DNA of 63,135 nucleotides from the sequence record SRR20825010_80; one strand, 5' to 3'. A program made the translations under genes and the position numbers. Positions 52,399-63,135 of this stretch are shown in pieces. Numbering within the stretch: the first letter of the stretch is position 1; each line of letters begins with the position of its first letter. Below the pieces are notes generated by a model that was given only the letters and a program-made list of their open reading frames with translations, was not told the DNA's origin and made no database searches.

Positions 52399-53550
52399 AT
52401 GAAAATGAAATCACACTTAACATTATTCCTGATCAGTTTATTGATCTTCAGCTGTGGGAACTCCAAGCCAAAAGACAAGCCTGACGCAAGCTTAGAGCCC
52501 AGCGAAACGATTAACTTCTCACTCGATAATCAAACCTCAAATGTGAGTAGCTTCTTGGCCTACCACGATAATTCAGGAGATGGTTTGTTGTTTTCCCTAA
52601 ATCAGCAAACCAATGAAATTCAGGCGTACTCCATAAACGAGCAGAAACTGGTTCATCAAAACTCCTATGCCATTGAGGGGCCAAAGGGAGTAGGAGAAAT
52701 CTCTGCCTTTCATATCGTTCGATTCGACAGCATCATTATTTTCCCTGCTAACAAAAATTCAGTTTACACTTCCAATATCCTGAAAGGTTCAGTGGAAGGG
52801 TTAAAATATGAACCTCCTTTAGGCTACACCAATGCCTCGTTTAGGCCCAGTGCTTTCCCCTCGAACTCGGCATTAATAGGCGGAAAACTTATGGTGAAAA
52901 CCAGCTTTATGGGAAATCCATATTTACTCTCGGACGATCAAATGGCCACTACACATTTGGCGTATTCTATTGACTTAAATTCAGGCCAAACCTCTCCCCT
53001 TCCACATTTCTTTCCGAAGGGATATTGGGGAGACAAAAAGACTTATTTCCGATTCAGTATGAGCGCTGGCCCTAAGTTTGTCTATTCCTTTTTTGGAGAT
53101 CATAATGTTTATTATGCAGATTCACCAAACTCAAAACTCTCTCCTGTATTAGCCGAAAGTAAATATTTCAAAAAAAGTATAGACCGCTTCCCTACAGATG
53201 GTACACCAGAGGACAGAGGAATGTATCCGATTGTGACAGCTCATTACGGAAACATTATCTATGACCAATACCGAGAAGTGTATTATAGGTTTTGCTTCCC
53301 TGGTGCAGAGATACTGGAGCGAGATAGCAACTTCCTTCAAATTGCATCATTCCCCAAGGCTTTTTCGATTATAATACTGAATAAGGATTTGAATCCCATT
53401 GGAGAAACATACTTCGGAAAAAACTCAAAGTTGGCTCCCTACAATTCATTTGTAGGAAAAGATGGGCTCTACATTTCTATTAACCACCCAGACAACCCCG
53501 AAAACAAAGAAGATTTTATGAGTTTTAAACGCTTTGCGTTGAGCCGATAA
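52399..53550 (+). CDS. DUF4221-family lipoprotein
   Basis: Lipobox IFSC, EGPKGVG, YGNIIYDQYREVYYRF, IGET, FVGKDGLYIS. Confidence 0.85.
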   Translation: MKMKSHLTLFLISLLIFSCGNSKPKDKPDASLEPSETINFSLDNQTSNVSSFLAYHDNSGDGLLFSLNQQTNEIQAYSINEQKLVHQNSYAIEGPKGVGEISAFHIVRFDSIIIFPANKNSVYTSNILKGSVEGLKYEPPLGYTNASFRPSAFPSNSALIGGKLMVKTSFMGNPYLLSDDQMATTHLAYSIDLNSGQTSPLPHFFPKGYWGDKKTYFRFSMSAGPKFVYSFFGDHNVYYADSPNSKLSPVLAESKYFKKSIDRFPTDGTPEDRGMYPIVTAHYGNIIYDQYREVYYRFCFPGAEILERDSNFLQIASFPKAFSIIILNKDLNPIGETYFGKNSKLAPYNSFVGKDGLYISINHPDNPENKEDFMSFKRFALSR

Positions 53551-53553
53551 GGT

Positions 53554-54033
53554 TTACAATAGCGACTTCACCCTATCATACATAGATTTTTCATCCAGCG
53601 CGGATTCTATGTTCTTTATGTCGTCTAGGAAGTTTTCTTTGCTATCTATTAAAAGTTGATCATTGGCCTTCTTGATTTTCCCCCAAAGGCCTTCCATTTT
53701 ACCCACCAATTCAATTCCAGTATCGCTCAATTTTAAAAGGCGCTTTCTTTGGTCGGCTTCATCTTTCGATTCGATCACCAACTTTTTCTTCACTAAAATA
53801 TTGGCTACTTGATTTACTGCGGGGTGGGTTTGTTGTAAGCTGGCCGCCAATTCTGTCACGGCAAGTTCTTCCCCATTCTTTAGGGCATACACTACAGCGA
53901 ACCAACGGGGTTCAAAATCGAAGTCAGATTCTTTATAAATAGCGGCCACATCTTTGGCCAACCGCTCACTTAAGTTTTTCAGGCGAGTAGCCAAAGCTAA
54001 ACTGCCCAACTCTTCAATTATATTCCTTTCCAA
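53554..54033 (-). CDS. MarR-family transcriptional regulator
   Basis: LALATRLKNLSE, FEPRWF, THPAV, D.RKRLL.LS; TTG start. Confidence 0.88.
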   Translation of the reverse strand: MERNIIEELGSLALATRLKNLSERLAKDVAAIYKESDFDFEPRWFAVVYALKNGEELAVTELAASLQQTHPAVNQVANILVKKKLVIESKDEADQRKRLLKLSDTGIELVGKMEGLWGKIKKANDQLLIDSKENFLDDIKNIESALDEKSMYDRVKSLL

Positions 54034-54331
54034 TTATTTCTTCTTTTTGGGAAGAAGCAATATTTTCATTCCCGTTGATCAATTTATTTCCAGCCAATTA
54101 CCTCCTCAAAACTCTTTTTGGCCTCGCAAATATCTATCCAATGCCTGGCTCCCTTGCGCCTTACTTTCTTCTAGAATAAATATTTAATGCGAAGATAATA
54201 CAGAAACCACGAATCGAAGGGTGATTTTTTACCTAAGGTCAGATGATATGAATTAAGGTGTTGGTCAATTTGTACGGTCAAAATATATACAAGCTGTTAA
54301 CTTTTGTATCTTGATCTCAAACTCTAGATCA

Positions 54332-54856
54332 ATGGCACACAAAACTAAATACCTTTTGTTTCTCTTTATTATTCTTTCGGTATTTCCCTCTTGCGAGACG
54401 GATGATGAGGATGACAATGAGCACGCTACCGAAGAAGTTGTTCGTTTTGAAAGAGAGGGGTCTTCCATTCTAAAAGGAGTGAAAGTACCTGCAGGAAAAA
54501 GCATCTATTTTGCCAGTGGTATAGTGGCCAACCCAAAAGACGAAAGCAAGCCCGAAGGCGACCGCGAGCGATTTGGAAACACCTATGAACAAAGCGTGAG
54601 CACCTTAGAGCGAATTGCGGATTATTTGGGCGAAGAAGGTTTGGGTTTAGAAGATGTAGTAGCAATGAAAGTATATGTTGCCCCCGACCCAGAAAACGAC
54701 AACAAACCTGATTTCGATGGCTGGTTTAAAGCTTATGCTGAATTCTTCGCAACGGAAGAAAACCCCAATAAAGTAGCGAGATCGACCATTGGCGTGTATA
54801 CTTTGGTGAATCCCAATATGTTTATTGAGGTGGAGGTAAGGGCGGTTTATAAGTGA
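54332..54856 (+). CDS. RidA/YjgF-family lipoprotein
   Basis: Lipobox FPSC, SG, T.EQ, ARSTIGV..L, IEVE; ATG at 54332. Confidence 0.85.
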   Translation: MAHKTKYLLFLFIILSVFPSCETDDEDDNEHATEEVVRFEREGSSILKGVKVPAGKSIYFASGIVANPKDESKPEGDRERFGNTYEQSVSTLERIADYLGEEGLGLEDVVAMKVYVAPDPENDNKPDFDGWFKAYAEFFATEENPNKVARSTIGVYTLVNPNMFIEVEVRAVYK

Positions 54857-54866
54857 TCGTTTAGGG
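54756..54866 (+). repeat. Direct repeat copy 1 (RidA gene 3' end plus 10 bp)
   Basis: Aligns with 56258..56366 at about 90% identity. Confidence 0.92.
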
Positions 54867-54922
54867 TTTGACCTCTGAACTATAGGATATGTTTCTTAAG
54901 GGCTGTTGTGCGTTTGTATATT

Positions 54923-56005
54923 TTAATTTTCTAGAATGTCCATTAATTTTTGGTTCAGGTATAATTTTTCTTTCCCTACTCTTATTGACTTAAGAAACCC
55001 TTTTTCCTCTAATGCTATCAAATAGTTCCCTACTGTTTTTGGTGTTCCTAAATCAATGTCAATTAGGTTTTGTCTTTTGGTATATGGAAACTTAAAAATG
55101 ACTTCGACCAAATCTTTGGAATAAACTTTAGGTAGTTTTTCTTTTATTTCTTGACTAGTTCTGTCCATTAGCTGAATTATAGACTCGAGTCTATTTAGTC
55201 CACTAGCGGCTGTTTTTTCTACCATATCTAACATGTAGAGCACAAAAAATGACCAATCATTTTTTTCAGTTACCGCTCTTAGGCCTTGGTAGTATTTGTC
55301 TTTATGCTTAATGATATAATCACTTAAAAATAGCGCTGGTATATCAAGTAACTGTTCGAGTTTAAGTTGAAGTAGTAGCAGAATACGACCTGTTCTTCCG
55401 TTACCATCGGCAAATGGATGAATGGCTTCAAATTGGTAATGTGATATTGCCATTTTAATCAGTGGGTCTATTGATCTATTTTCATTGATGAAAATCTCCA
55501 GATTAGCCATTTTGTCTCTTATGACTTGTTCTCCTGTTGGCGGAGTATAGATAACGTCTCCTTTTGCATTGGATAGCATAGTTCCAGGTGTAGTTCTTAT
55601 GCCTGCAGAATTTTGTTTAATACACTGAACAAGCTCTAAACAAAGGTTTGTTGTAATGAAAGGCTGTTTTTCAAGAAGTTTAAAGCCTAGCCAAATAGCT
55701 TCTTTATAACTGATGACCTCTTTTGTCGCTGGATTATCGAATTTTTTATCAGCAACAACAGATTGATATAAGTCGTCATTTGTAGTTATAATATTCTCAA
55801 TTTCAGAACTGGCTTTTGCTTCTTGAAGGTGAAGCGTGTCAAGAAATAAACTTGGATTGGGCAAGTTTCTTATTGCGCCATTTAATTGAGCTAAAGCTCT
55901 ACTAGCTTTAATGGTTTTAGTTAAAATTTCTTTGGTTTCTAAATCTGCCTTGGGCGGAAGTAGAGGGAGGCTGTTAAACGGTTTTGATTTATCGAAGCTA
56001 TTCAT
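54923..56005 (-). CDS. Class II Fic protein (SoFic-like) with C-terminal HTH
   Basis: HPFADGNGRTGR catalytic motif, inhibitory SSEIEN motif, YTPP, C-terminal wHTH-like segment. Confidence 0.93.
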   Translation of the reverse strand: MNSFDKSKPFNSLPLLPPKADLETKEILTKTIKASRALAQLNGAIRNLPNPSLFLDTLHLQEAKASSEIENIITTNDDLYQSVVADKKFDNPATKEVISYKEAIWLGFKLLEKQPFITTNLCLELVQCIKQNSAGIRTTPGTMLSNAKGDVIYTPPTGEQVIRDKMANLEIFINENRSIDPLIKMAISHYQFEAIHPFADGNGRTGRILLLLQLKLEQLLDIPALFLSDYIIKHKDKYYQGLRAVTEKNDWSFFVLYMLDMVEKTAASGLNRLESIIQLMDRTSQEIKEKLPKVYSKDLVEVIFKFPYTKRQNLIDIDLGTPKTVGNYLIALEEKGFLKSIRVGKEKLYLNQKLMDILEN

Positions 56006-56010
56006 AAATA

Positions 56011-56097
56011 AGAGTAAGCTTTACACTTGTTATTACTACAAGGGTAAAAATAATAAAAAATTACCCTTATTCCTATATGGAAGGTAGGTTTTACTCT
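56011..56097. promoter_or_regulatory. Putative operator array upstream of fic
   Basis: AGAGTAA/TTACACT, AGGGTAA/TTACCCT, AAGGTAG/TTACTCT starting at 56011, 56021, 56041, 56061, 56081, 56091. Confidence 0.5.
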
Positions 56098-56257
56098 CGT
56101 TTTTTCGAATGAGGCATTAGGGTACATGTAAGCTAAGTAAGGGGCAAAGTGGTTTGCCGTGAAGCATGAAATATTCGTCCTGATTTTGATTGACAAATTC
56201 GACTCATAAAAAGTTAGCTTGCTTAGAACTCGGCCGATGACAAGTACTCTGGAGCCC

Positions 56258-56366
56258 AAGAAAACCCCAATAAAGTATCAAGACGACCATTGGCGTTTAT
56301 ACTTTGGTGAATCACGACATGTTTATTGAGGTGGAAGTAAGGGCGGTTTATCAGTGATCGTTAGGG
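56258..56366 (+). pseudogene. Displaced, frameshifted copy of the RidA gene 3' end (direct repeat copy 2)
   Basis: ENPNKVSR/TIGVYTLVNHDMFIEVEVRAVYQ* with a 1-bp deletion. Confidence 0.9.
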
Positions 56367-56371
56367 CTTCA

Positions 56372-56395
56372 TGATAGTATCATTTGATACTATCA
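56372..56395. repeat. Perfect 11-bp inverted repeat
   Basis: TGATAGTATCA-TT-TGATACTATCA. Confidence 0.85.
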
Positions 56396-56429
56396 ATGAT
56401 AAGGCTTTCTAAGAAGTTGGGCGTTTTTT

Positions 56430-56563
56430 ATGTGGTGTAATGCTCTGGCTATGTGCAGTGCGGGATTGAAAAGTACTAAACTTTCGGTTTTGCACTGACC
56501 TTTGATATATGTTTTATCTTTCGCTTTATAACTCAAACCGCTATTACTAATACACATAGTTTT
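56430..56563 (-). mobile_element. attC-like site 3 (decayed)
   Basis: Minus strand AAC-TAT-GTGTATTAGTAATAGCGG...AACCGAAAGT...CCGCACTGCACATAGCC-AGAGC-ATT; shares AACCGAAAGT with site 1. Confidence 0.55.
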
Positions 56564-57571
56564 TTATTTCCAAGTCACTTTTTTTAATTCTTCCGCTATC
56601 AATTCAGTGTTGTTATAGTCGGTTATTGTCAAATAATCTCTTAAATCTTTGTACCTATAGCCTTGTATTCCTCCGTGCGATATTTTTCTGAAATCGGTAT
56701 CATAGGTTTTGTCTTCTGGAAGGACATAGTACTTTAAACCAAATTGGTCTTCTCCTAATTCAGACAAACCGTTTTTTAGTCGGTCAATTTGTTTGTCTGT
56801 ATGTCCTTTACTATGAATATTTAGGTCGTTTGTACTTGCGTCATAATCAGCAATTATTGTGGTTTCAATTTCCGAGATTGTTCTTACAGATTTCCAGTTA
56901 TATAAACCGAAAAATTTAAATTTCTGACTGTGCCAACTAGTTGGACAGTAATATATTTTATGGGCTTTATTCCAACTATGCGAGAAACCTGTTGGCGCAA
57001 ATAGGACTTTGTATTCTTCATTTGAGATTAAATTACTGCTTATGCAATAATTACTGAAATCGTCAAGAAGTAACCTTAACTCCATATCGTGAGTATTCTC
57101 CTCATAAATCCCTTCTAGGTTATCAATTAAGTCATTAAATATTAAATTGTTAAACTGGATTTTTAGGTTTGAGTATGTTTCTTTTAATCTTCTGTTTATC
57201 TCTACAACTTCTTTTTCTTCAAATTTGACTGAACTTAAATGCCATAGTTGATTTTGACTGTTTTCATTGAATACTTCTCCATATTTTACCAGTTTACCAA
57301 TAAACTCTTTACTGTTTAATTTCGTTTCAATTATTATTTTGGAAGGCTTAACTTCTATATGACCATCAATGATACCTTTCTTCATTCCAACCTGTTGTCT
57401 AAAAATTGGTCGAGGATAGTAATATTGCTCAATGCTTCCTTCATTCAGTCGTTCTATAATTGATTTGTAATATTCAACGTTTAGGTCGTTTAACCTTGAT
57501 AGCATTAATAAGACGTTGTTTGTAACAGTATTTTCTTTCTGTGAATATTTTTGAAATTGACTTATTCTCAT
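56564..57571 (-). CDS. Hypothetical protein with PD-(D/E)XK-like nuclease N-terminus
   Basis: EN..TNN helix, Q, IDGHI...IIIETKL; AT-rich. Confidence 0.6.
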   Translation of the reverse strand: MRISQFQKYSQKENTVTNNVLLMLSRLNDLNVEYYKSIIERLNEGSIEQYYYPRPIFRQQVGMKKGIIDGHIEVKPSKIIIETKLNSKEFIGKLVKYGEVFNENSQNQLWHLSSVKFEEKEVVEINRRLKETYSNLKIQFNNLIFNDLIDNLEGIYEENTHDMELRLLLDDFSNYCISSNLISNEEYKVLFAPTGFSHSWNKAHKIYYCPTSWHSQKFKFFGLYNWKSVRTISEIETTIIADYDASTNDLNIHSKGHTDKQIDRLKNGLSELGEDQFGLKYYVLPEDKTYDTDFRKISHGGIQGYRYKDLRDYLTITDYNNTELIAEELKKVTWK

Positions 57572-57585
57572 TTTTTGGTCAAATT

Positions 57586-57657
57586 AGTTTCAACGTTCCG
57601 GCTAAAAAGCGTTGCTATCCCGAAGGACAGCTATGAGTTTTAGCCATTTTTGGCAGC
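57586..57657 (-). mobile_element. attC-like site 2 (short)
   Basis: Minus strand GCCAAA-AAT-GGCTAAAA...GCTGTCC-TTCG-GGATAGC...TTTTAGCC-GGAAC-GTTGAAA filling the intergenic gap. Confidence 0.65.
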
Positions 57658-57658
57658 T

Positions 57659-58549
57659 TTATTTTTTCTTTACAATTGGATGATTAAGACCATTGACATA
57701 GTTTTCAATGATTTCGAACCTGTCTTGTTTATCAAGTAACTCAGAAAGATTATTGAATCCATATTTTCTTGGATGAAAATCAGGGTCAATTTTCTTTATT
57801 TCAATTCCGATTTTTGCAAGATGCGGTTCTTCACTATTTATGGAGGCTCTTTGAAATGCTTCGTCAATCAATAGACTAAGCTCTTTTTCGCCAAAGTCAG
57901 CAATTGAATATTTTTTGGCAGGGCCTTCATTTGCTTCATTAATTAAACGTTTTCTTTTTAATCGAATTAAGTCACGTGTTATAACTGGAATGCTCACCCC
58001 GAGTTTTTCGGATATTTCAGGAGAAGTGAGTTTGACTTCAGCATTTCGTAGTGTGTTTAATATTTTCAATTGGAACTGCGTTACAGGAACAGAATCATTT
58101 TCAGACTGTTGGATTAAGTCTTCCGTATTCTCCTGGCTGATATTTACTTGATCTGTTATTATCCGAAACTGCTCATCGAACAACTGCTTTATTTGATTTT
58201 TTTCTTCTGAACCAATTGAGGTTATTTCATCTGATACTCTTTTAATCAAATTGCTTTTCACATTTTCAAGTTGATCACTTATATCATCAAAGTCTTGAGA
58301 GACCAATACACCTTTATTGTTTTTTATAGCGGCATCGAGTGTTTTGTCAAACATTCCCCCAATTTGGGTCTGAATAGAAGCGGTTTTTTCCTCGATTTTA
58401 ATAAGTGCCTTATTCGCGCTATCCTGAAGGTTTACACCATCTCTATAAAATTTTAGAGATGCAAAAAATCCTACAATCGTGATTATTAGCGCAATTAGCC
58501 CCAAAATTAAAGACACAATTGCAAGAGTATCTCCTAAATCTATGTACAT
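57659..58549 (-). CDS. Membrane-anchored protein with winged HTH and C-terminal OST-HTH/LOTUS domain
   Basis: N-terminal TM, coiled coil, LTSPEISEKLGVSIPVITRDL..L, LAKIG..IKKIDPDFHPRKYGFNNLSELL. Confidence 0.75.
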   Translation of the reverse strand: MYIDLGDTLAIVSLILGLIALIITIVGFFASLKFYRDGVNLQDSANKALIKIEEKTASIQTQIGGMFDKTLDAAIKNNKGVLVSQDFDDISDQLENVKSNLIKRVSDEITSIGSEEKNQIKQLFDEQFRIITDQVNISQENTEDLIQQSENDSVPVTQFQLKILNTLRNAEVKLTSPEISEKLGVSIPVITRDLIRLKRKRLINEANEGPAKKYSIADFGEKELSLLIDEAFQRASINSEEPHLAKIGIEIKKIDPDFHPRKYGFNNLSELLDKQDRFEIIENYVNGLNHPIVKKK

Positions 58550-58565
58550 CGTTTTATTTTTATTG

Positions 58566-58704
58566 AGGCTAACGGTTAGTATATGAAAATTAGGCGATTA
58601 CGAAGCACGCACTTTCGGTTAAACACCAAGTTTGTTGATACGAGCCTAAAGCCTTGAATTTAGCACTAATTCGTCTATTTTTTATATACATTGTTATGGG
58701 CTGG
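58566..58704 (-). mobile_element. attC-like site 1 (intact)
   Basis: Minus strand GCCCATAAC-AAT-GTATATAAAAAATAGACGA...TCGCCTAATTTTCATATAC-TAACC-GTTAGCC; 19-bp arms. Confidence 0.75.
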
Positions 58705-58712
58705 CTTTACTT

Positions 58713-60896
58713 TCACGTTAGTTTTTTTACGTCTGCGAACAATATTTTTAAATGATCGTCTGTCAAATCCATTAATGGTTCATACATAAATGAGTTTATG
58801 TGAATGTTTTCTGCTGTCATTAAATTAACTCTGTCTAAAACCCCTATGTTATCAGTCTCTGTCGGAAATTCCATTCTGTATTTTTCGACAATACTACCTG
58901 TTTGCTTTTTTAGTATATGATTATGAAAGTTAGGGTCAACAATTTTTGAAATCATAAACCTTTCAGCTTTAAGTCTTATTGCAATTGAAATGCATATTTT
59001 AAACTTTATGTCCAGAGGATTTCCATCTGCGAGATTGTAGATTTCTTCTGCCTTGCTATTGATTAAGTCGAAAACAATAATTGCTGAATTTACTTTTGTC
59101 TTTGTTTGCTGAAAAGTTGAATTGAAAATATCTAAAACGGACTGAACTGTTATTTCTTCGGTCTTAGCAATTCCATTAACGGCTCTCTCTGGCTTCATAT
59201 GAAGTAATGAAGTCAAAAGAAGATAACTGTCGTTATCGTCTCCAATTGTGAAATCAATTAAGTTTCTGACAAATGGAATACAAGCAATAAATGTAAAATC
59301 GCAATTATCATAATTGCTTCTTAGAATTGGAAAGACATCCTTTTTTTCCCCTATTGTGAGTTCTATTTCTCCCGAATTTCTCGTTGTTGTCCAATTCCCT
59401 TGGTAGTTAATTTTTGCTCCCAATCTGCTTTTGATAGTCTTGTAAAAATCGAAATTGTGAGTTAAGACAATCATAAAGAAATGAGGGTCGTCTAAAACAT
59501 CCTTTAAATATTCGATTATTGCATATTTGTTTTTGTAGTCAAATGAGTCTGCGATATCGTCAACAATTACAAGCTGGTTTTTCTTAAGTTTCTTTCTCGT
59601 CTCAATTTGAAAAATAATATTTAAAAGATAGAAAACTCTTTGTTCTCCTGTGCTTAAAGATTGTTGTAATTCTGCTCCTCCTAACAATTTTGTATCATCA
59701 GGTCCTGTGCCGTCTGTGTACTTAAATAATAATGAGGCAGGTTCGCTATTTAAAATTACATCTTCTTGATTTTTAATATGTACTTCAAAAGGAACAGTAA
59801 ATCTTCGTTTAAAAATATCGATTACTTTTTTCCAATCATCTTGCTCCTGTTTTGCTTCCTGTACAATTTTTTCTCTTTGCTCTGAAGTATCTTTATGAAG
59901 TTTTGAAAGAACATTAAACTCGCTTTTAAATTTTGTCAAATAGTTTATTATGAGCTTCTTTTTGAAGTTTATTAAATCTGCAAACTCCTTAATGATTTCC
60001 TGATTTTCTTCAATGTAACTTCTAAACTTTCTTAGTTCTGCATTACTATTAAGTGATTTGTCAATTTCATTAAATTTGCTTGCCAAAGCAGGGTCTTTAA
60101 GAACTTTTTCTTTTTCGTTGAAAATTAGTTCCTCCAATTCTTTGGCATTTGTAATTTCTTGTTCTTTAATTTTTACTCTGTGATTAGCAGAAAAGAAGTT
60201 ATTGTCTTTGAGTGATTTTGTAACGGTATCTGCATTATAGTGATTAAATGTTCCCTTCATAAAAAGAGAGTTATTTTCATTTACAAGCGTGTCATAGACT
60301 TCTATGTATTCTCTTATTTTTGATTTAAAATCCCTGCTTTCGAGAAACTTTACGGATTTGTCATTGAAAACTTCTGAATACTGAATATTTGAATATATCG
60401 GTTCTTTTATCTCGTTTATTTCTGTGTGGTAAGTTTCAAACGTTTTAAATAAATCTTGTTTGAATACTGACTCAATTTCACTTTCTACTTGGTTACTCCT
60501 AATGCCAAATGACGGTTGAATTTGTTTTAGAAACTCAATTTTTGATTCGTTCAGTTTGGAATTTATTGTATCATAGTCAGCTTTAAGCTTTTGATTTGCA
60601 AGAATTGTTGAAGCTTCTTTGAACTCTGCTGATTTCATTCTTTGAATGACAAAAATTTCGTCTTGTTCAATATCAACCCCATCAACTTTTACTTGTCTGT
60701 GATTTACTCTGTGCGAAAAGATTCTGTCTTTTGAAACCTTCCCTTCTGCAATATCTTCCATTGTCAAAGCAAGTGAGGATTTCATTACTCCATTTGGTGC
60801 ATAAATAAGCTGTGTTTTTGATTCGCCAAAATTGAATTTATGTTTGAACCGTCTTATTCCGTAACAGTTTTCTAAGTGGATTTCTAATTCTATCAT
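58713..60896 (-). CDS. ABC/SMC-like ATPase (AAA_13/RloC-like architecture) with long coiled coil
   Basis: Variant Walker A YAPNGVMKSS, signature LSTGEQR, Walker B IVDDIADSFD, H-loop LTHNFDF. Confidence 0.8.
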   Translation of the reverse strand: MIELEIHLENCYGIRRFKHKFNFGESKTQLIYAPNGVMKSSLALTMEDIAEGKVSKDRIFSHRVNHRQVKVDGVDIEQDEIFVIQRMKSAEFKEASTILANQKLKADYDTINSKLNESKIEFLKQIQPSFGIRSNQVESEIESVFKQDLFKTFETYHTEINEIKEPIYSNIQYSEVFNDKSVKFLESRDFKSKIREYIEVYDTLVNENNSLFMKGTFNHYNADTVTKSLKDNNFFSANHRVKIKEQEITNAKELEELIFNEKEKVLKDPALASKFNEIDKSLNSNAELRKFRSYIEENQEIIKEFADLINFKKKLIINYLTKFKSEFNVLSKLHKDTSEQREKIVQEAKQEQDDWKKVIDIFKRRFTVPFEVHIKNQEDVILNSEPASLLFKYTDGTGPDDTKLLGGAELQQSLSTGEQRVFYLLNIIFQIETRKKLKKNQLVIVDDIADSFDYKNKYAIIEYLKDVLDDPHFFMIVLTHNFDFYKTIKSRLGAKINYQGNWTTTRNSGEIELTIGEKKDVFPILRSNYDNCDFTFIACIPFVRNLIDFTIGDDNDSYLLLTSLLHMKPERAVNGIAKTEEITVQSVLDIFNSTFQQTKTKVNSAIIVFDLINSKAEEIYNLADGNPLDIKFKICISIAIRLKAERFMISKIVDPNFHNHILKKQTGSIVEKYRMEFPTETDNIGVLDRVNLMTAENIHINSFMYEPLMDLTDDHLKILFADVKKLT

Positions 60897-60931
60897 TTAT
60901 TTCAATTGTGTCGGTTATTGTTTTTCAGCTT

Positions 60932-61031
60932 GCCCATAACATTATGTATCAGTCACTTTTTATGCCTTATACCCATAAATATATTCATTTTTATGACTGA
61001 ACTACCTAGTATATCATTTATATCAGTCACT
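60932..61031 (-). mobile_element. attI-like array head site
   Basis: Minus strand TGATAC-ATAAT-GTTATGGGC without a long hairpin; 11-bp direct repeat TATCAGTCACT at 60947 and 61021. Confidence 0.55.
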
Positions 61032-61169
61032 GCTAAGGAATAGGAGCTTGGTTTTGAGGTAACTTTCTACATTTTGCTTTTCTTTTTATTTTGATTCCTT
61101 TGTATCAAGAATACAGCAATCTTTGGAAGAGAGTATTAATACAACAACATCCATCTTTTAGTCGAAAAC

Positions 61170-62972
61170 ATGAAACTAAGAAACCTAACCATAGCCTTAC
61201 TGAGCTTCTTGGCCATCAGCCTACAAGCCCAAACCTACAACGAATACGAACTTTCGTTTGATAATGCAGTGCACCACGAAGCCAATATTAAAATCAAGTT
61301 CAGCAACTTAGAAAACAAAGTATTGGAAGTGCGCATGAGCCGCAGTTCACCCGGCCGTTATGCGGTGCATGAGTTTGCCAAAAACGTGTACAACGTTAAG
61401 GCCACGGACAGTAACGGAAAGGCCCTACCTATTACCAGAGAAAACCCTTATCAGTGGAATGTCGCTGGACATAACGGCACAGTCAACTTTGAATATACGC
61501 TTTATGCCAACCGTGCTGGCGGTACTTATTCTGGTATTGACGAAAGCCACGCCCACCTCAACATGCCCGCTACTTTGGCTTGGGCCAGAGGTTTAGACCA
61601 ACGGCCGATAAAAGTAAAGTTCAATGTAAGGGAAGACAGAAACTGGAAAGTAGCTACTCAACTTAAAGATTTGGGCAATAATACATTCTACGCGCCAAAC
61701 ACTTATTACTTAATGGACAGCCCAACTGAAATTGCTGATTTGTATTTCAGAGAAAGAAATGTAGATGGACAAACCATTCGTTTGGCCTTGCATAAAGACG
61801 GCACTACCGATGCAGAAGTGGATGCTTATTTCGAAGAAACCATGGGCATTGTTATGCAGCAAAAAGCGGTTTTTGGCGAATTGGCTACTTACGATTTTGG
61901 CCAGTACACTTTCCTTTCTTGCTATATGCCCAACGCCAGTGGCGATGGTATGGAGCACCGAAACTCAACTTATGTGGTGAGCGGATTGCCAGTCGAAAGA
62001 CCATTGGCCTCCACCTCAATGGGCACCATGTCGCATGAATTTTTCCATAGCTGGAATGTGGAGCGCATTCGCCCTAAATCGTTAGAACCTTTCAGTTTTG
62101 AAGACGCCAACATGTCGGGTGAATTGTGGTTTGCCGAAGGATTTACAAGTTATTACACCGCCTTAATGCAGGCGCGTTCTGGAAGCATTTCAGCCGAACA
62201 ATATATAAATGGTTTGGGCGGAAGTGTAGGTTATGTGGTTAATGCCCCAGGCAGAAATTTCCATAACCCCATTGAAATGAGCTATCAAGCACCATTTGTT
62301 GATGCTGCCACTTCCATTGACCCCACCAACTTGAGCAATATTTTCATTTCTTACTACACTTATGGTTCGGTGTTGGGCTTGGCGCTAGATATGTCTTTAC
62401 GCACTATGGACAATGATAAAAACTTAGATGATTACATGAAATACGTTTGGCAGAAGCACGGCAAAACGGAAATTCCTTACACCGTTCGCGACTTACAGGC
62501 CCGAATGGCTGAATATGCCGGAGAAAGCTTCGCTAATGAGTTTTTCGGAAAATACATTTTGGACAGTCAAATGCCAGATTACGCCAGTTTGTTCAAGAAA
62601 ATGGGCGTAACCTACACTAATCGAGCGGAAGGCCGTGCAAGCATAGGCGGCAACATTCGCAACCAAAGAGGAGGCTGGCAACTGACAGGCAACGCTACAG
62701 TAGGGTCGCCAATTTATAAAGCGGGTGTAGAATCTGAAGATGTGATTTTGAGCATTGCAGGTACTACTTTAACTGATGACTCTAACATCAACGAAATTAT
62801 TGCAGCACATAAACCGGGCGATACTATTGAGATTAAGTACCGCAAAATTTGGGGCGAAGAAAAAACTTCGAAGCTTACCTTGGAAGAAGCTCAAGCATGG
62901 TCAACCGCTATGGACGCCAATGCGGATGCCAAGGCAAAAGCCAGAAGAGAGGCTTGGTTGAGGAAGAGGTAG
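61170..62972 (+). CDS. M61 glycyl aminopeptidase with PDZ domain
   Basis: Signal peptide, SPGRY, GMEHRNS, SHEFFHSWNVERIRP, LWFAEGFTSYY, C-terminal PDZ. Confidence 0.93.
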   Translation: MKLRNLTIALLSFLAISLQAQTYNEYELSFDNAVHHEANIKIKFSNLENKVLEVRMSRSSPGRYAVHEFAKNVYNVKATDSNGKALPITRENPYQWNVAGHNGTVNFEYTLYANRAGGTYSGIDESHAHLNMPATLAWARGLDQRPIKVKFNVREDRNWKVATQLKDLGNNTFYAPNTYYLMDSPTEIADLYFRERNVDGQTIRLALHKDGTTDAEVDAYFEETMGIVMQQKAVFGELATYDFGQYTFLSCYMPNASGDGMEHRNSTYVVSGLPVERPLASTSMGTMSHEFFHSWNVERIRPKSLEPFSFEDANMSGELWFAEGFTSYYTALMQARSGSISAEQYINGLGGSVGYVVNAPGRNFHNPIEMSYQAPFVDAATSIDPTNLSNIFISYYTYGSVLGLALDMSLRTMDNDKNLDDYMKYVWQKHGKTEIPYTVRDLQARMAEYAGESFANEFFGKYILDSQMPDYASLFKKMGVTYTNRAEGRASIGGNIRNQRGGWQLTGNATVGSPIYKAGVESEDVILSIAGTTLTDDSNINEIIAAHKPGDTIEIKYRKIWGEEKTSKLTLEEAQAWSTAMDANADAKAKARREAWLRKR

Positions 62973-63135
62973 TTATTGGTTAAGGGGGGGGGTGGTTAGG
63001 ACGCTGTTTGTGCTTAAATTATTGGTAAGTAGTTAAATTATCATTGGTTTTCTTCTATAAATAAGCTCCTAATGAAAAACTACCCTCGGTAACAATTATA
63101 TGCACACTGCTTTTCATCCTGATTTCTATGACAAT

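Follow-up and report, generated by a model that had tools for sequence, protein, structure and literature searches.

We analysed a stretch of 63,135 nucleotides (nt) from sequence record SRR20825010_80, referred to below as the window, whose host is a Cytophagales-type Bacteroidota genome. Between a ridA-like gene and the gene of an M61 peptidase, the window carries an island of low G+C content (GC; 31-35% over 54870-61000, and 31% in the unit described here, against approximately 40% on the ridA side and 43-45% in the flank on the M61 side). The minus strand carries every gene of the island: those for an ABC-type ATPase, a protein with winged helix-turn-helix (HTH) and OST-HTH domains, a protein of no recognized family and a SoFic-type Fic protein. 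Our subject is the unit that holds the ATPase gene. The evidence leaves us fairly confident that this unit belongs to an integron-like system as a site-specific gene cassette, the first of three inserted at an attI-like site between the M61 and ridA-like genes. Its features are as follows (ORF, open reading frame; bp, base pairs).

58573..60939, minus strand: cassette 1, taken as an integron-type unit that starts with the TT following the upstream G and finishes with the G of the GTT in its own site
58713..60896, minus strand: ORF of 727 amino acids, ABC-type ATPase of the PADLOC candidate defence family PDC-S46
60938..60940, minus strand: GTT triplet, 5' boundary of cassette 1 and putative crossover point
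60927..60940, minus strand: 5' arm of the outer inverted repeat, GTTATGGGCAAGCT
58693..58706, minus strand: 3' arm of the outer inverted repeat, AGCCAGCCCATAAC, an R''-like box with an extension
58571..58695, minus strand: site 1, an attC-like imperfect palindrome (AAC...GTT) of family A, approximately 125 nt, scoring 133 bits with covariance model R1
60941..61031, minus strand: attI-like site ("site 0"), a member of an approximately 100-nt repeat family, ending in ...GTGACTGATACATAAT just before GTT

The ATPase matches the PADLOC profile PDLC05023 (PDC-S46) over its full length (residues 1-726 on profile positions 1-718 of 719; E-value 3.6e-241, 800.8 bits) and has no match in Pfam or NCBIfam. 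PDC-S46 is, to our knowledge, a candidate defence family only, and we know of no defence test of it; here it appears to be carried as a mobile cassette. A previous inspection of the letters of this DNA (the sequence-only reading) had drawn attention to a 9-bp complement between the two ends of the unit. This complement is real and exact: GTTATGGGC at 60940-60932 pairs with GCCCATAAC at 58701-58693, both read on the minus strand. The same reading had begun the unit at 58566 and had site 1 closed by GTTAGCC; the motif is present, but since it occupies 58573-58567, the proposed start lies one base outside the site. The complementarity exceeds 9 bp. Of the 14 positions of GTTATGGGCAAGCT (60940-60927), 12 pair with AGCCAGCCCATAAC (58706-58693), and an inverted-repeat search gives cassette 1 outer arms of 23 nt that are 78% complementary. 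Counting both strands of the window, the 9-mer and its complement occur three times (12195 plus, 58693 plus and 60932 minus) where 0.27 occurrences are expected, and none of 100 shuffles reached this count.

Site 1 belongs to a family of hairpins whose architecture is conserved. In an alignment of 13 family-A copies (A1), the conserved block runs exactly from AAC to GTT, and at least six outer bases vary from copy to copy. The consensus structure of these copies, on the non-coding strand, consists of a 5-bp helix, a 4/2 internal loop and an 18-bp stem. Placed in this register, the non-coding (plus) strand of site 1 forms an outer helix of four Watson-Crick pairs and one G.T pair, and a stem of 15 Watson-Crick pairs, two G.T pairs and one mismatch. 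The arms had been described as pairing at 18 of 19 positions with two wobbles, which comes close for the stem and misses the third G.T pair in the outer helix; that the wobbles turn into A.C mismatches on the coding strand holds for all three. The G.T pairs are retained in 11-12 of the 13 copies, which is not independent evidence because the copies are related. The flanking bases fit RYYY/RRRY at the first position only (GTTAGCC, GTTATGG, GTTGTGG), with the AAC and GTT bounds and the palindrome conserved.

Relatives of site 1 occur at many loci in nine genomes, two of which come from other families. Within the genus, 24 of 36 genomes contain family-A sites (92 candidates per genome scored), with one to four sites per genome at dispersed loci. 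Using R1 together with a structural detector, we find same-strand arrays of four sites in locus L014 and of two to three sites in several other loci. The detected sites are 52-190 nt long, lie all on one strand within arrays and have variable outer arms. A first, loose version of the detector made 2690 calls in 828 kb, most of them false, and the detector was then tightened. The alignment built from R1 matches (A2) held opposite-strand matches of the same sites and was not used for a second model. The limits of site 1 also appear in four sequencing runs (X1-X4) compared as assembled contigs: every run has contigs that end or diverge at 58570-58576, with further such ends at 58703 and 58708 in X1 and X2. 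One of the runs contains the greater part of the window, and there site 1 is matched by further contigs whose similarity breaks off at 58571 and at 58703 or 58708.

Does the ATPase unit move as one piece? Homologs of its protein that are 78-86% identical occur in three Flavobacterium genomes and three metagenome-assembled genomes (MAGs). DNA similarity to the corresponding loci (L052-L057) extends from 60916-60943 down to 58692-58745. In agreement with the cassette model of the sequence-only reading, homology at seven other loci and on one metagenome contig begins no more than 25 nt from the GTT at 60940 (at 60940 itself in L055 and at 60943 in L057). The arm GTTATGGG(C/T)AAGCC is conserved in L054, L055 and L057, each time after unrelated sequence. 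The expectation that homology would stop at both GTT positions was borne out at 60940 and not at TAACCG/GTT, where similarity ends instead at AAC (58693): the end lies at 58692-58694 in six loci (L052, L053, L054, L055, L057 and L063, the last of which contributes the 3' end of the cassette similarity), and at 58745 in L056. Copies that are 95-97% identical are found in other contexts among the run contigs. A groundwater contig of run X4 leaves the 5' end of the cassette at 60940 into letters that match the family-A consensus A1 by eye, and a contig of run X3, 97% identical, takes in the start of site 1.

Some further observations concern PDC-S46. At 638-2732 of L057 (titled as a Chitinophagales MAG), the cassette adjoins a 300 amino acid Xer/IntI-like recombinase, with an IS91-family transposase directly beside the latter; the cassette may be mobilized differently here, and this recombinase is not counted as evidence. 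Distant homologs (33-37% identity) are present in Vibrio (L067, L069) and other Proteobacteria, and L072 (titled as a Campylobacterales MAG) has matching ends, GTTAAATGC / GCATTTAAC. PDC-S46 may be frequent cargo of classical integrons too.

The attI-like site at the head of the array is itself a repeat. Across 21 aligned copies, conservation ends at GTT, and the GTT is present in 17 of them. In genomes G001 and G008, this attI-like site lies at the same M61 locus with other cassettes behind it, similarity to the window starting from 60937 and 60948, respectively. In the same-genus relative G015 (locus L033), the site stands between the stop codon of a 352 amino acid IntI-like gene and the first cassette. 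The site of the window and 18 of the 21 copies have no adjoining recombinase gene, and traces of one are seen as a 3'-end remnant in L034 and a fragment in L039. As separate observations, variants of the attI-like site ending ...CATAACGTT (L033 9100-9195) and another at L034 1830-1900 precede ordinary host genes, a TPR/AraC regulator in the former and a long ORF in the latter; members of the attI-like family may have a further role, for instance as a promoter. Immediately upstream of the IntI-like gene or what remains of it (L033 4184-4890, L034 400-450), there are an IS200/IS605-type transposase gene and REP-like hairpins (ATAGCCCACGGTTTAAACCGTGGGCTAT).

We are interested in whether the matching ends of cassette 1 reflect a general rule, by which the 5' end of a cassette complements the flank before its own AAC. 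In L033, all three cassettes obey it over 9-10 nt: the first starts with GTTGTGGTG and its site with CACCACAAC, the second with GTTGTAGCAC and GTGCTACAAC, and the third with GTTGTAGCCA and TGGCTACAAC. At the window's own locus in G001 (L026), two of two match on the variable flank (GTTAGGCAC/GTGCCTAAC, GTTGTAGGC/GCCTACAAA). The automated detector finds a match at 6/6 variable bases in four of nine neighbouring same-strand site pairs, the null from unrelated flanks being 0.22%, and in one of two pairs from validation loci fetched later. An exact 9-mer complement is present within 6 kb downstream of 7/21 attI-like copies versus 1/21 in the upstream control, and the lone control match belongs to a copy without GTT. 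Around the ORF in PDC-S46 homolog loci, an exact complement between GTT+6 and 6+AAC is found in 6/23 (swapped-motif control: 1/23); among these, the ends GTTAGGCGA..TCGCCTAAC are common to L061, L075 and L078 (loci titled Ferruginibacter, Algoriphagus, Sphingobacteriales). The rule recurs far more often than chance allows. In cassette 1 of the window and in these cases, the 5' end matches the R''-like box of its own cassette, the pattern expected of crossover at G|TT.

The arrays are linked to a recombinase gene, which we describe from the same-genus relative.

5128-6186 of L033 (G015): IntI/XerA-like tyrosine recombinase, 352 amino acids

In L033, the intI-like gene, the attI-like site and the cassettes follow one another on one strand. 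The best NCBIfam match of the product is NF040815, "XerA/integron integrase" (224 bits, cut-off 220), and it scores 184.6 bits with XerD, 174.8 bits with XerC and 153 bits against 435 with NF011946. Its best solved relative is VchIntIA/IntI4 (2a3v; E-value 2.8e-40), at 142 bits versus 137.8 for a XerA structure. The catalytic domain PF00589 is contiguous (residues 176-336 on positions 1-169, no insertion), and there is an 80-residue N-terminal extension. Source annotations of the homologs read "site-specific tyrosine recombinase/integron integrase" or XerD (Roseivirga, Algoriphagus, others). When the 36 genomes of the genus were searched with TIGR02249, none gave a hit above the cut-off; the same search found housekeeping Xer-like genes in 34 of 36, and the IntI-like recombinase is a paralogue separate from them. 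Within the genus, 11 loci carry an intact or fragmentary recombinase of at least 50% identity, and 8 of them have same-strand sites downstream. We also took 80 metagenome loci picked by the recombinase alone (40-75% identity). Here the number of sites per kb is 0.177 downstream on the same strand, compared with 0.034 downstream on the opposite strand, 0.09 upstream on the same strand and 0.136 upstream on the opposite strand. Neighbouring pairs that match at 6/6 bases number 4/14 downstream on the same strand (null 0.07%) and 0/30 at all other positions, and exact complements number 11/31 as against 0/6, 4/42 and 1/29.

These findings suggest the following mechanism. A cassette consists of an ORF followed by its site, with 6-13 variable nt, AAC, stem and loop, and GTT. 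Recombination would cross over at GTT, presumably cutting after the G, and the bases past GTT would belong to the next cassette; the 5' end of each cassette is therefore complementary to the bases that precede the AAC of its own site. Excision would join the two ends into a circle, and there the 12/14 outer repeat would lengthen the base of the hairpin. In line with the proposal of the sequence-only reading that the complementary ends mark excision as a circle, the junction circularized in silico folds at -18.4 kcal/mol (bottom strand) and -17.7 kcal/mol (top strand), with z of -2.5 and -2.1; the chromosomal site in the same comparison folds at -11.4 and -11.2 kcal/mol with z of approximately 0, so that the junction is better by approximately 7 kcal/mol. 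The site may be used as a folded single strand. The acting enzyme is likely an IntI/XerA-like tyrosine recombinase without the IntI-specific domain, which in relatives is encoded directly upstream of the attI-like site and reads towards the cassettes. Exchange at AAC may come from occasional recombination of the other strand's hairpin, or from double-stranded exchange. It had also been proposed that cassette 1 is the most recently integrated one. This is plausible: it lies beside the attI-like site, is alone in the array in having intact matching ends, has low GC and has near-identical copies elsewhere.

Several observations weigh against an integron-like cassette. The window has no recombinase gene, and the enzyme is known from relatives. 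The recombinase of L033 is not a canonical integron integrase: it reaches 209.6 bits with TIGR02249 (cut-off 265), the match being split in two around model positions 181-238, which stay uncovered, its alignment with IntI4 is also in two pieces, with no counterpart to IntI4 residues 215-245, and the IntI-specific additional domain near patch III is absent. Sites 0-3 folded singly on both strands give no z below -1.41, with site 1 at approximately 0 versus shuffles; single-sequence folds are no better than shuffles, and support for the site structure comes only from comparison between copies. The bottom strand is the more stable in 18 of 26 sites (mean -2.1 kcal/mol), with a detector thresholded on one strand, and the effect is weak for site 1, where the difference between strands is negligible (-11.4 vs -10.7 kcal/mol in one fold, -10.4 vs -10.7 in another). 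Cassettes 2 and 3 of the window break the end-matching rule, and their sites are decayed. Many pairs fail elsewhere (5/9 automated, 10/14 metagenome), which may reflect missed sites, false sites or decay. Finally, the cassettes of L052, L053 and L054, from three Flavobacterium genomes, are 93.5-96.5% identical to one another over the last 600 nt to AAC, and in the next 125 nt past AAC they are 48.6-52.9% identical, where the shuffle baseline is 50%. The simple single-crossover model of a classical integron does not predict this loss of similarity at AAC.

Such a loss would suit a moving unit that is just the gene within its terminal inverted repeats (GTTATGGGCAAGCT ... AGCCAGCCCATAAC), transferred by double exchange or in a transposon-like manner, the hairpins being resident landing pads or independent elements. 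Similarity in six loci indeed spans GTT to AAC, and the outer repeat stays with the gene lineage in the three loci that share GTTAGGCGA..TCGCCTAAC. However, the unit contains no transposase, no target-site duplication is seen, and the arrays are linked to a tyrosine recombinase and not to a transposase. The 95-97% identical cassette also retains its 3' family-A site in the X3 and X4 contigs, and L055 and L056, which are 92% identical, retain an inner site that is 72% similar; gene and site therefore travel together over short times. We consider the terminal-repeat explanation improbable. Because similarity is lost exactly at AAC, the unit from GTT to AAC that carries the gene has reassorted with the hairpin from AAC to GTT, both triplets being breakpoints, and AAC must then also act as an exchange point, if only rarely. 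The inner site of the window is of the host genus's own family A. A search for further reassortment of gene and site among 207 detected sites gave only duplicate contigs of the same regions, and the ATPase unit is the sole case.

Could the arrays instead consist of Xer/dif-type modules, such as the pdif modules of Acinetobacter plasmids, in which host XerC/D-like enzymes act on short double-stranded dif-like cores? The linked recombinase does score about equally on XerA and IntI, and the site ends, AAC(C)GTT, come close to a palindrome. The pdif modules have 28-bp conserved double-stranded cores in alternating orientation. The sites described here are imperfect palindromes of 52-190 nt with a single orientation and variable arms, and the recombinase is a paralogue apart from the housekeeping Xer-like genes, which makes such modules very unlikely. 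We find it scarcely credible that the 9-bp match is due to chance or to promoter and terminator ends, the repeats to REP-like or terminator hairpins, and the island to homologous recombination. This DNA is AT-rich and abounds in inverted repeats (407 pairs in 7.8 kb), and a site folded as a single sequence is indeed no better than its shuffles. Against this, the 9-mer count was not attained by shuffling, the rule holds at 9-10 nt in unrelated cassettes at null rates of 0.07-0.2%, and GTT and AAC are the breakpoints in many contexts that are independent of one another.

The system shares much with classical integrons, both the sedentary chromosomal integrons of Vibrio and the mobile class 1 integrons. 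Likewise, these have same-orientation arrays of single-ORF cassettes, each with an ...AAC–GTT... imperfect palindrome; crossover at GTT, with a 5' end that complements the cassette's own R''-like box; an attI-like site beside the recombinase gene, seen here in L033; and host-typical site families. There are also clear differences. Classical IntI has a domain near patch III that the recombinase here lacks. Classical attC sites are bounded by R'' (RYYYAAC) and R' (GTTRRRY); here only the first base after GTT fits GTTRRRY, and the end complementarity is 9-16 nt, compared with 7 nt in the classical case. The hairpin here contains a 4/2 internal loop, its stem is long and uninterrupted, the attI-like sites are multi-copy and mostly without an adjoining integrase (18/21), and the arrays are small and dispersed. 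Since the cassette anatomy and the end-matching rule fit but the defining integrase domain is absent, we regard the system as integron-like in its working and not as a canonical member.

In Treponema-type integrons, intI reads towards the cassettes. Archaeal integrons have attI immediately downstream of intI, and their integrases carry the IntI additional domain, as described in passages of PMC9668308. Both types have the same order of intI, attI and cassettes as L033 and the metagenome loci, and the integrase here differs in lacking the additional domain. XerA, XerC and XerD resemble the recombinase in their contiguous PF00589 domain and in NF040815 as the best NCBIfam match, but they act on a single dif site, whereas the recombinase here is linked to cassette arrays and carries the 80-residue extension. 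A CALIN is defined as two or more attC sites that the IntegronFinder model recognizes no more than 4 kb apart, with no integrase. By architecture alone, the window is similar (sites at 58695-58571, 57651-57592 and 56561-56439, no integrase nearby), and it differs in having an attI-like site at the head.

In PMC4889954 and PMC9668308, sections that cite Messier and Roy (2001) take the IntI-specific domain to be necessary and to define IntI. PMC4889954 also mentions, in one part, 21 recombinases without intI_Cterm next to attC sites, which might bear on the novelty of the present system. In the sections consulted, the survey with IntegronFinder 2.0 gives for Bacteroidetes only In0 elements and one complete integron, in Salinibacter (PMC9024848), and Bacteroidota are described as almost free of integrons (PMC9024848; 10.1101/2024.07.02.601686). 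Likewise, the part of the 2021 taxon-specific attC model set that we drew on holds none for Bacteroidota (PMC8352920), and a passage of a 2021 review counts Bacteroidota among the phyla with integrons detected (PMC8618304). Anti-phage genes are known as integron cargo, a likeness to this system, from portions of 10.1101/2024.07.02.601686. We found no description of such a system in the full-text literature, the coverage of which leaves out most subscription journals; within the literature searched, this gene-capture system of Bacteroidota is a variant of the integron type that has not been described previously.

The system is seen here in a Cytophagales-type genus, shares cassettes with Flavobacterium and has matching ends at loci titled Ferruginibacter, Algoriphagus and Sphingobacteriales. 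It is tempting to hypothesize a widespread, unrecognized integron lineage of Bacteroidota, with an integrase that lacks the IntI domain, multi-copy attI-like pads, anti-phage genes traded across orders, and reassortment through AAC as well as GTT; we hold the chances for and against this broader view to be about even. If it is true, it offers a testable route by which an imported gene gains the attC type of its host, which bears on how cassettes are made; the loss of similarity at AAC between cassettes that are 93.5-96.5% identical is a handle on how cassettes acquire host-specific sites. Integron searches defined by the integrase domain and by attC models would probably miss this system. If the IntI-like enzyme recombines these hairpins, the extra domain is no universal requirement for cassette recombination, the known range of integron-type capture widens to include a major phylum found in soils, waters and guts, and defence genes such as PDC-S46 are seen moving between orders as cassettes.

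The remaining features of the island and its borders are listed below.

61170..62972, plus strand: M61 peptidase gene, right border of the island
57659..58549, minus strand: cassette 2 ORF, 296 amino acids, winged HTH and OST-HTH/LOTUS (Pfam PF12872, E-value 5.2e-10; HTH families)
57592..57651, minus strand: site 2, a short hairpin ending CGTT, with AAA at the AAC position (decayed)
56564..57571, minus strand: cassette 3 ORF, 335 amino acids, no family match
56439..56561, minus strand: site 3, diverged or decayed, with ATT for GTT; distal end of the array
56258..56438, plus strand: displaced ridA-like 3' end and native downstream sequence, 84-87% identical to G015 and G011; chromosomal flank at the array end
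54311..54856, plus strand: ridA/L-PSP gene, left border of the island

The three-cassette array runs from 60940 to 56439 on the minus strand, between the attI-like site (61031-60941) and the native flank of the ridA-like gene, which resumes at 56438. The flank of site 2 does not match the 5' end of its cassette; a member of its family lies at L022 2607-2667, and copies occur in other genomes. Site 3 is matched by R1 at 56435-56567 (23.8 bits, E-value 0.014) in the orientation of site 1. The cassette 2 protein has an N-terminal hydrophobic segment and weak PADLOC matches to CRISPR-associated regulators of the CasR/Csa3 type. The gap between ridA and M61 is at most 190 nt, an empty site, in 13 of the 25 same-genus genomes searched, and G001, G008, G015 and G011 have 1-2 kb of other DNA there. 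A scan of 53000-63135 against Rfam, with E-values up to 10, returned only chance-level snoRNA and lncRNA matches.

A repeat search shows 56258-56438 to be a direct repeat with 54756-54868. This segment is the ridA 3' end, displaced together with the native sequence that follows it, and hence the SoFic module (54869-56257) is a separate insertion. This 1.5-kb module, which carries the SoFic-type Fic gene (54923-56005, minus strand), interrupts the ridA-like gene within its 3' end. Two direct repeats of that end, each of 112 nt (54756-54868 and 56258-56369) and 90% alike, lie on either side of the module, and the distal one is followed by the native terminator of the gene. The module looks like a circle with a foreign ridA 3' end that was inserted in a Campbell-type or site-specific manner, by a route other than that of the cassette array. 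In the terminator region of ridA, a perfect 24-nt palindrome (56372-56395) is also present in G008 and G015. Past the M61 gene, on its 3' side, an element of approximately 30 nt (63093-63123) has copies that are 93-97% identical at other loci of G001, G008, G011, G012 and G015.

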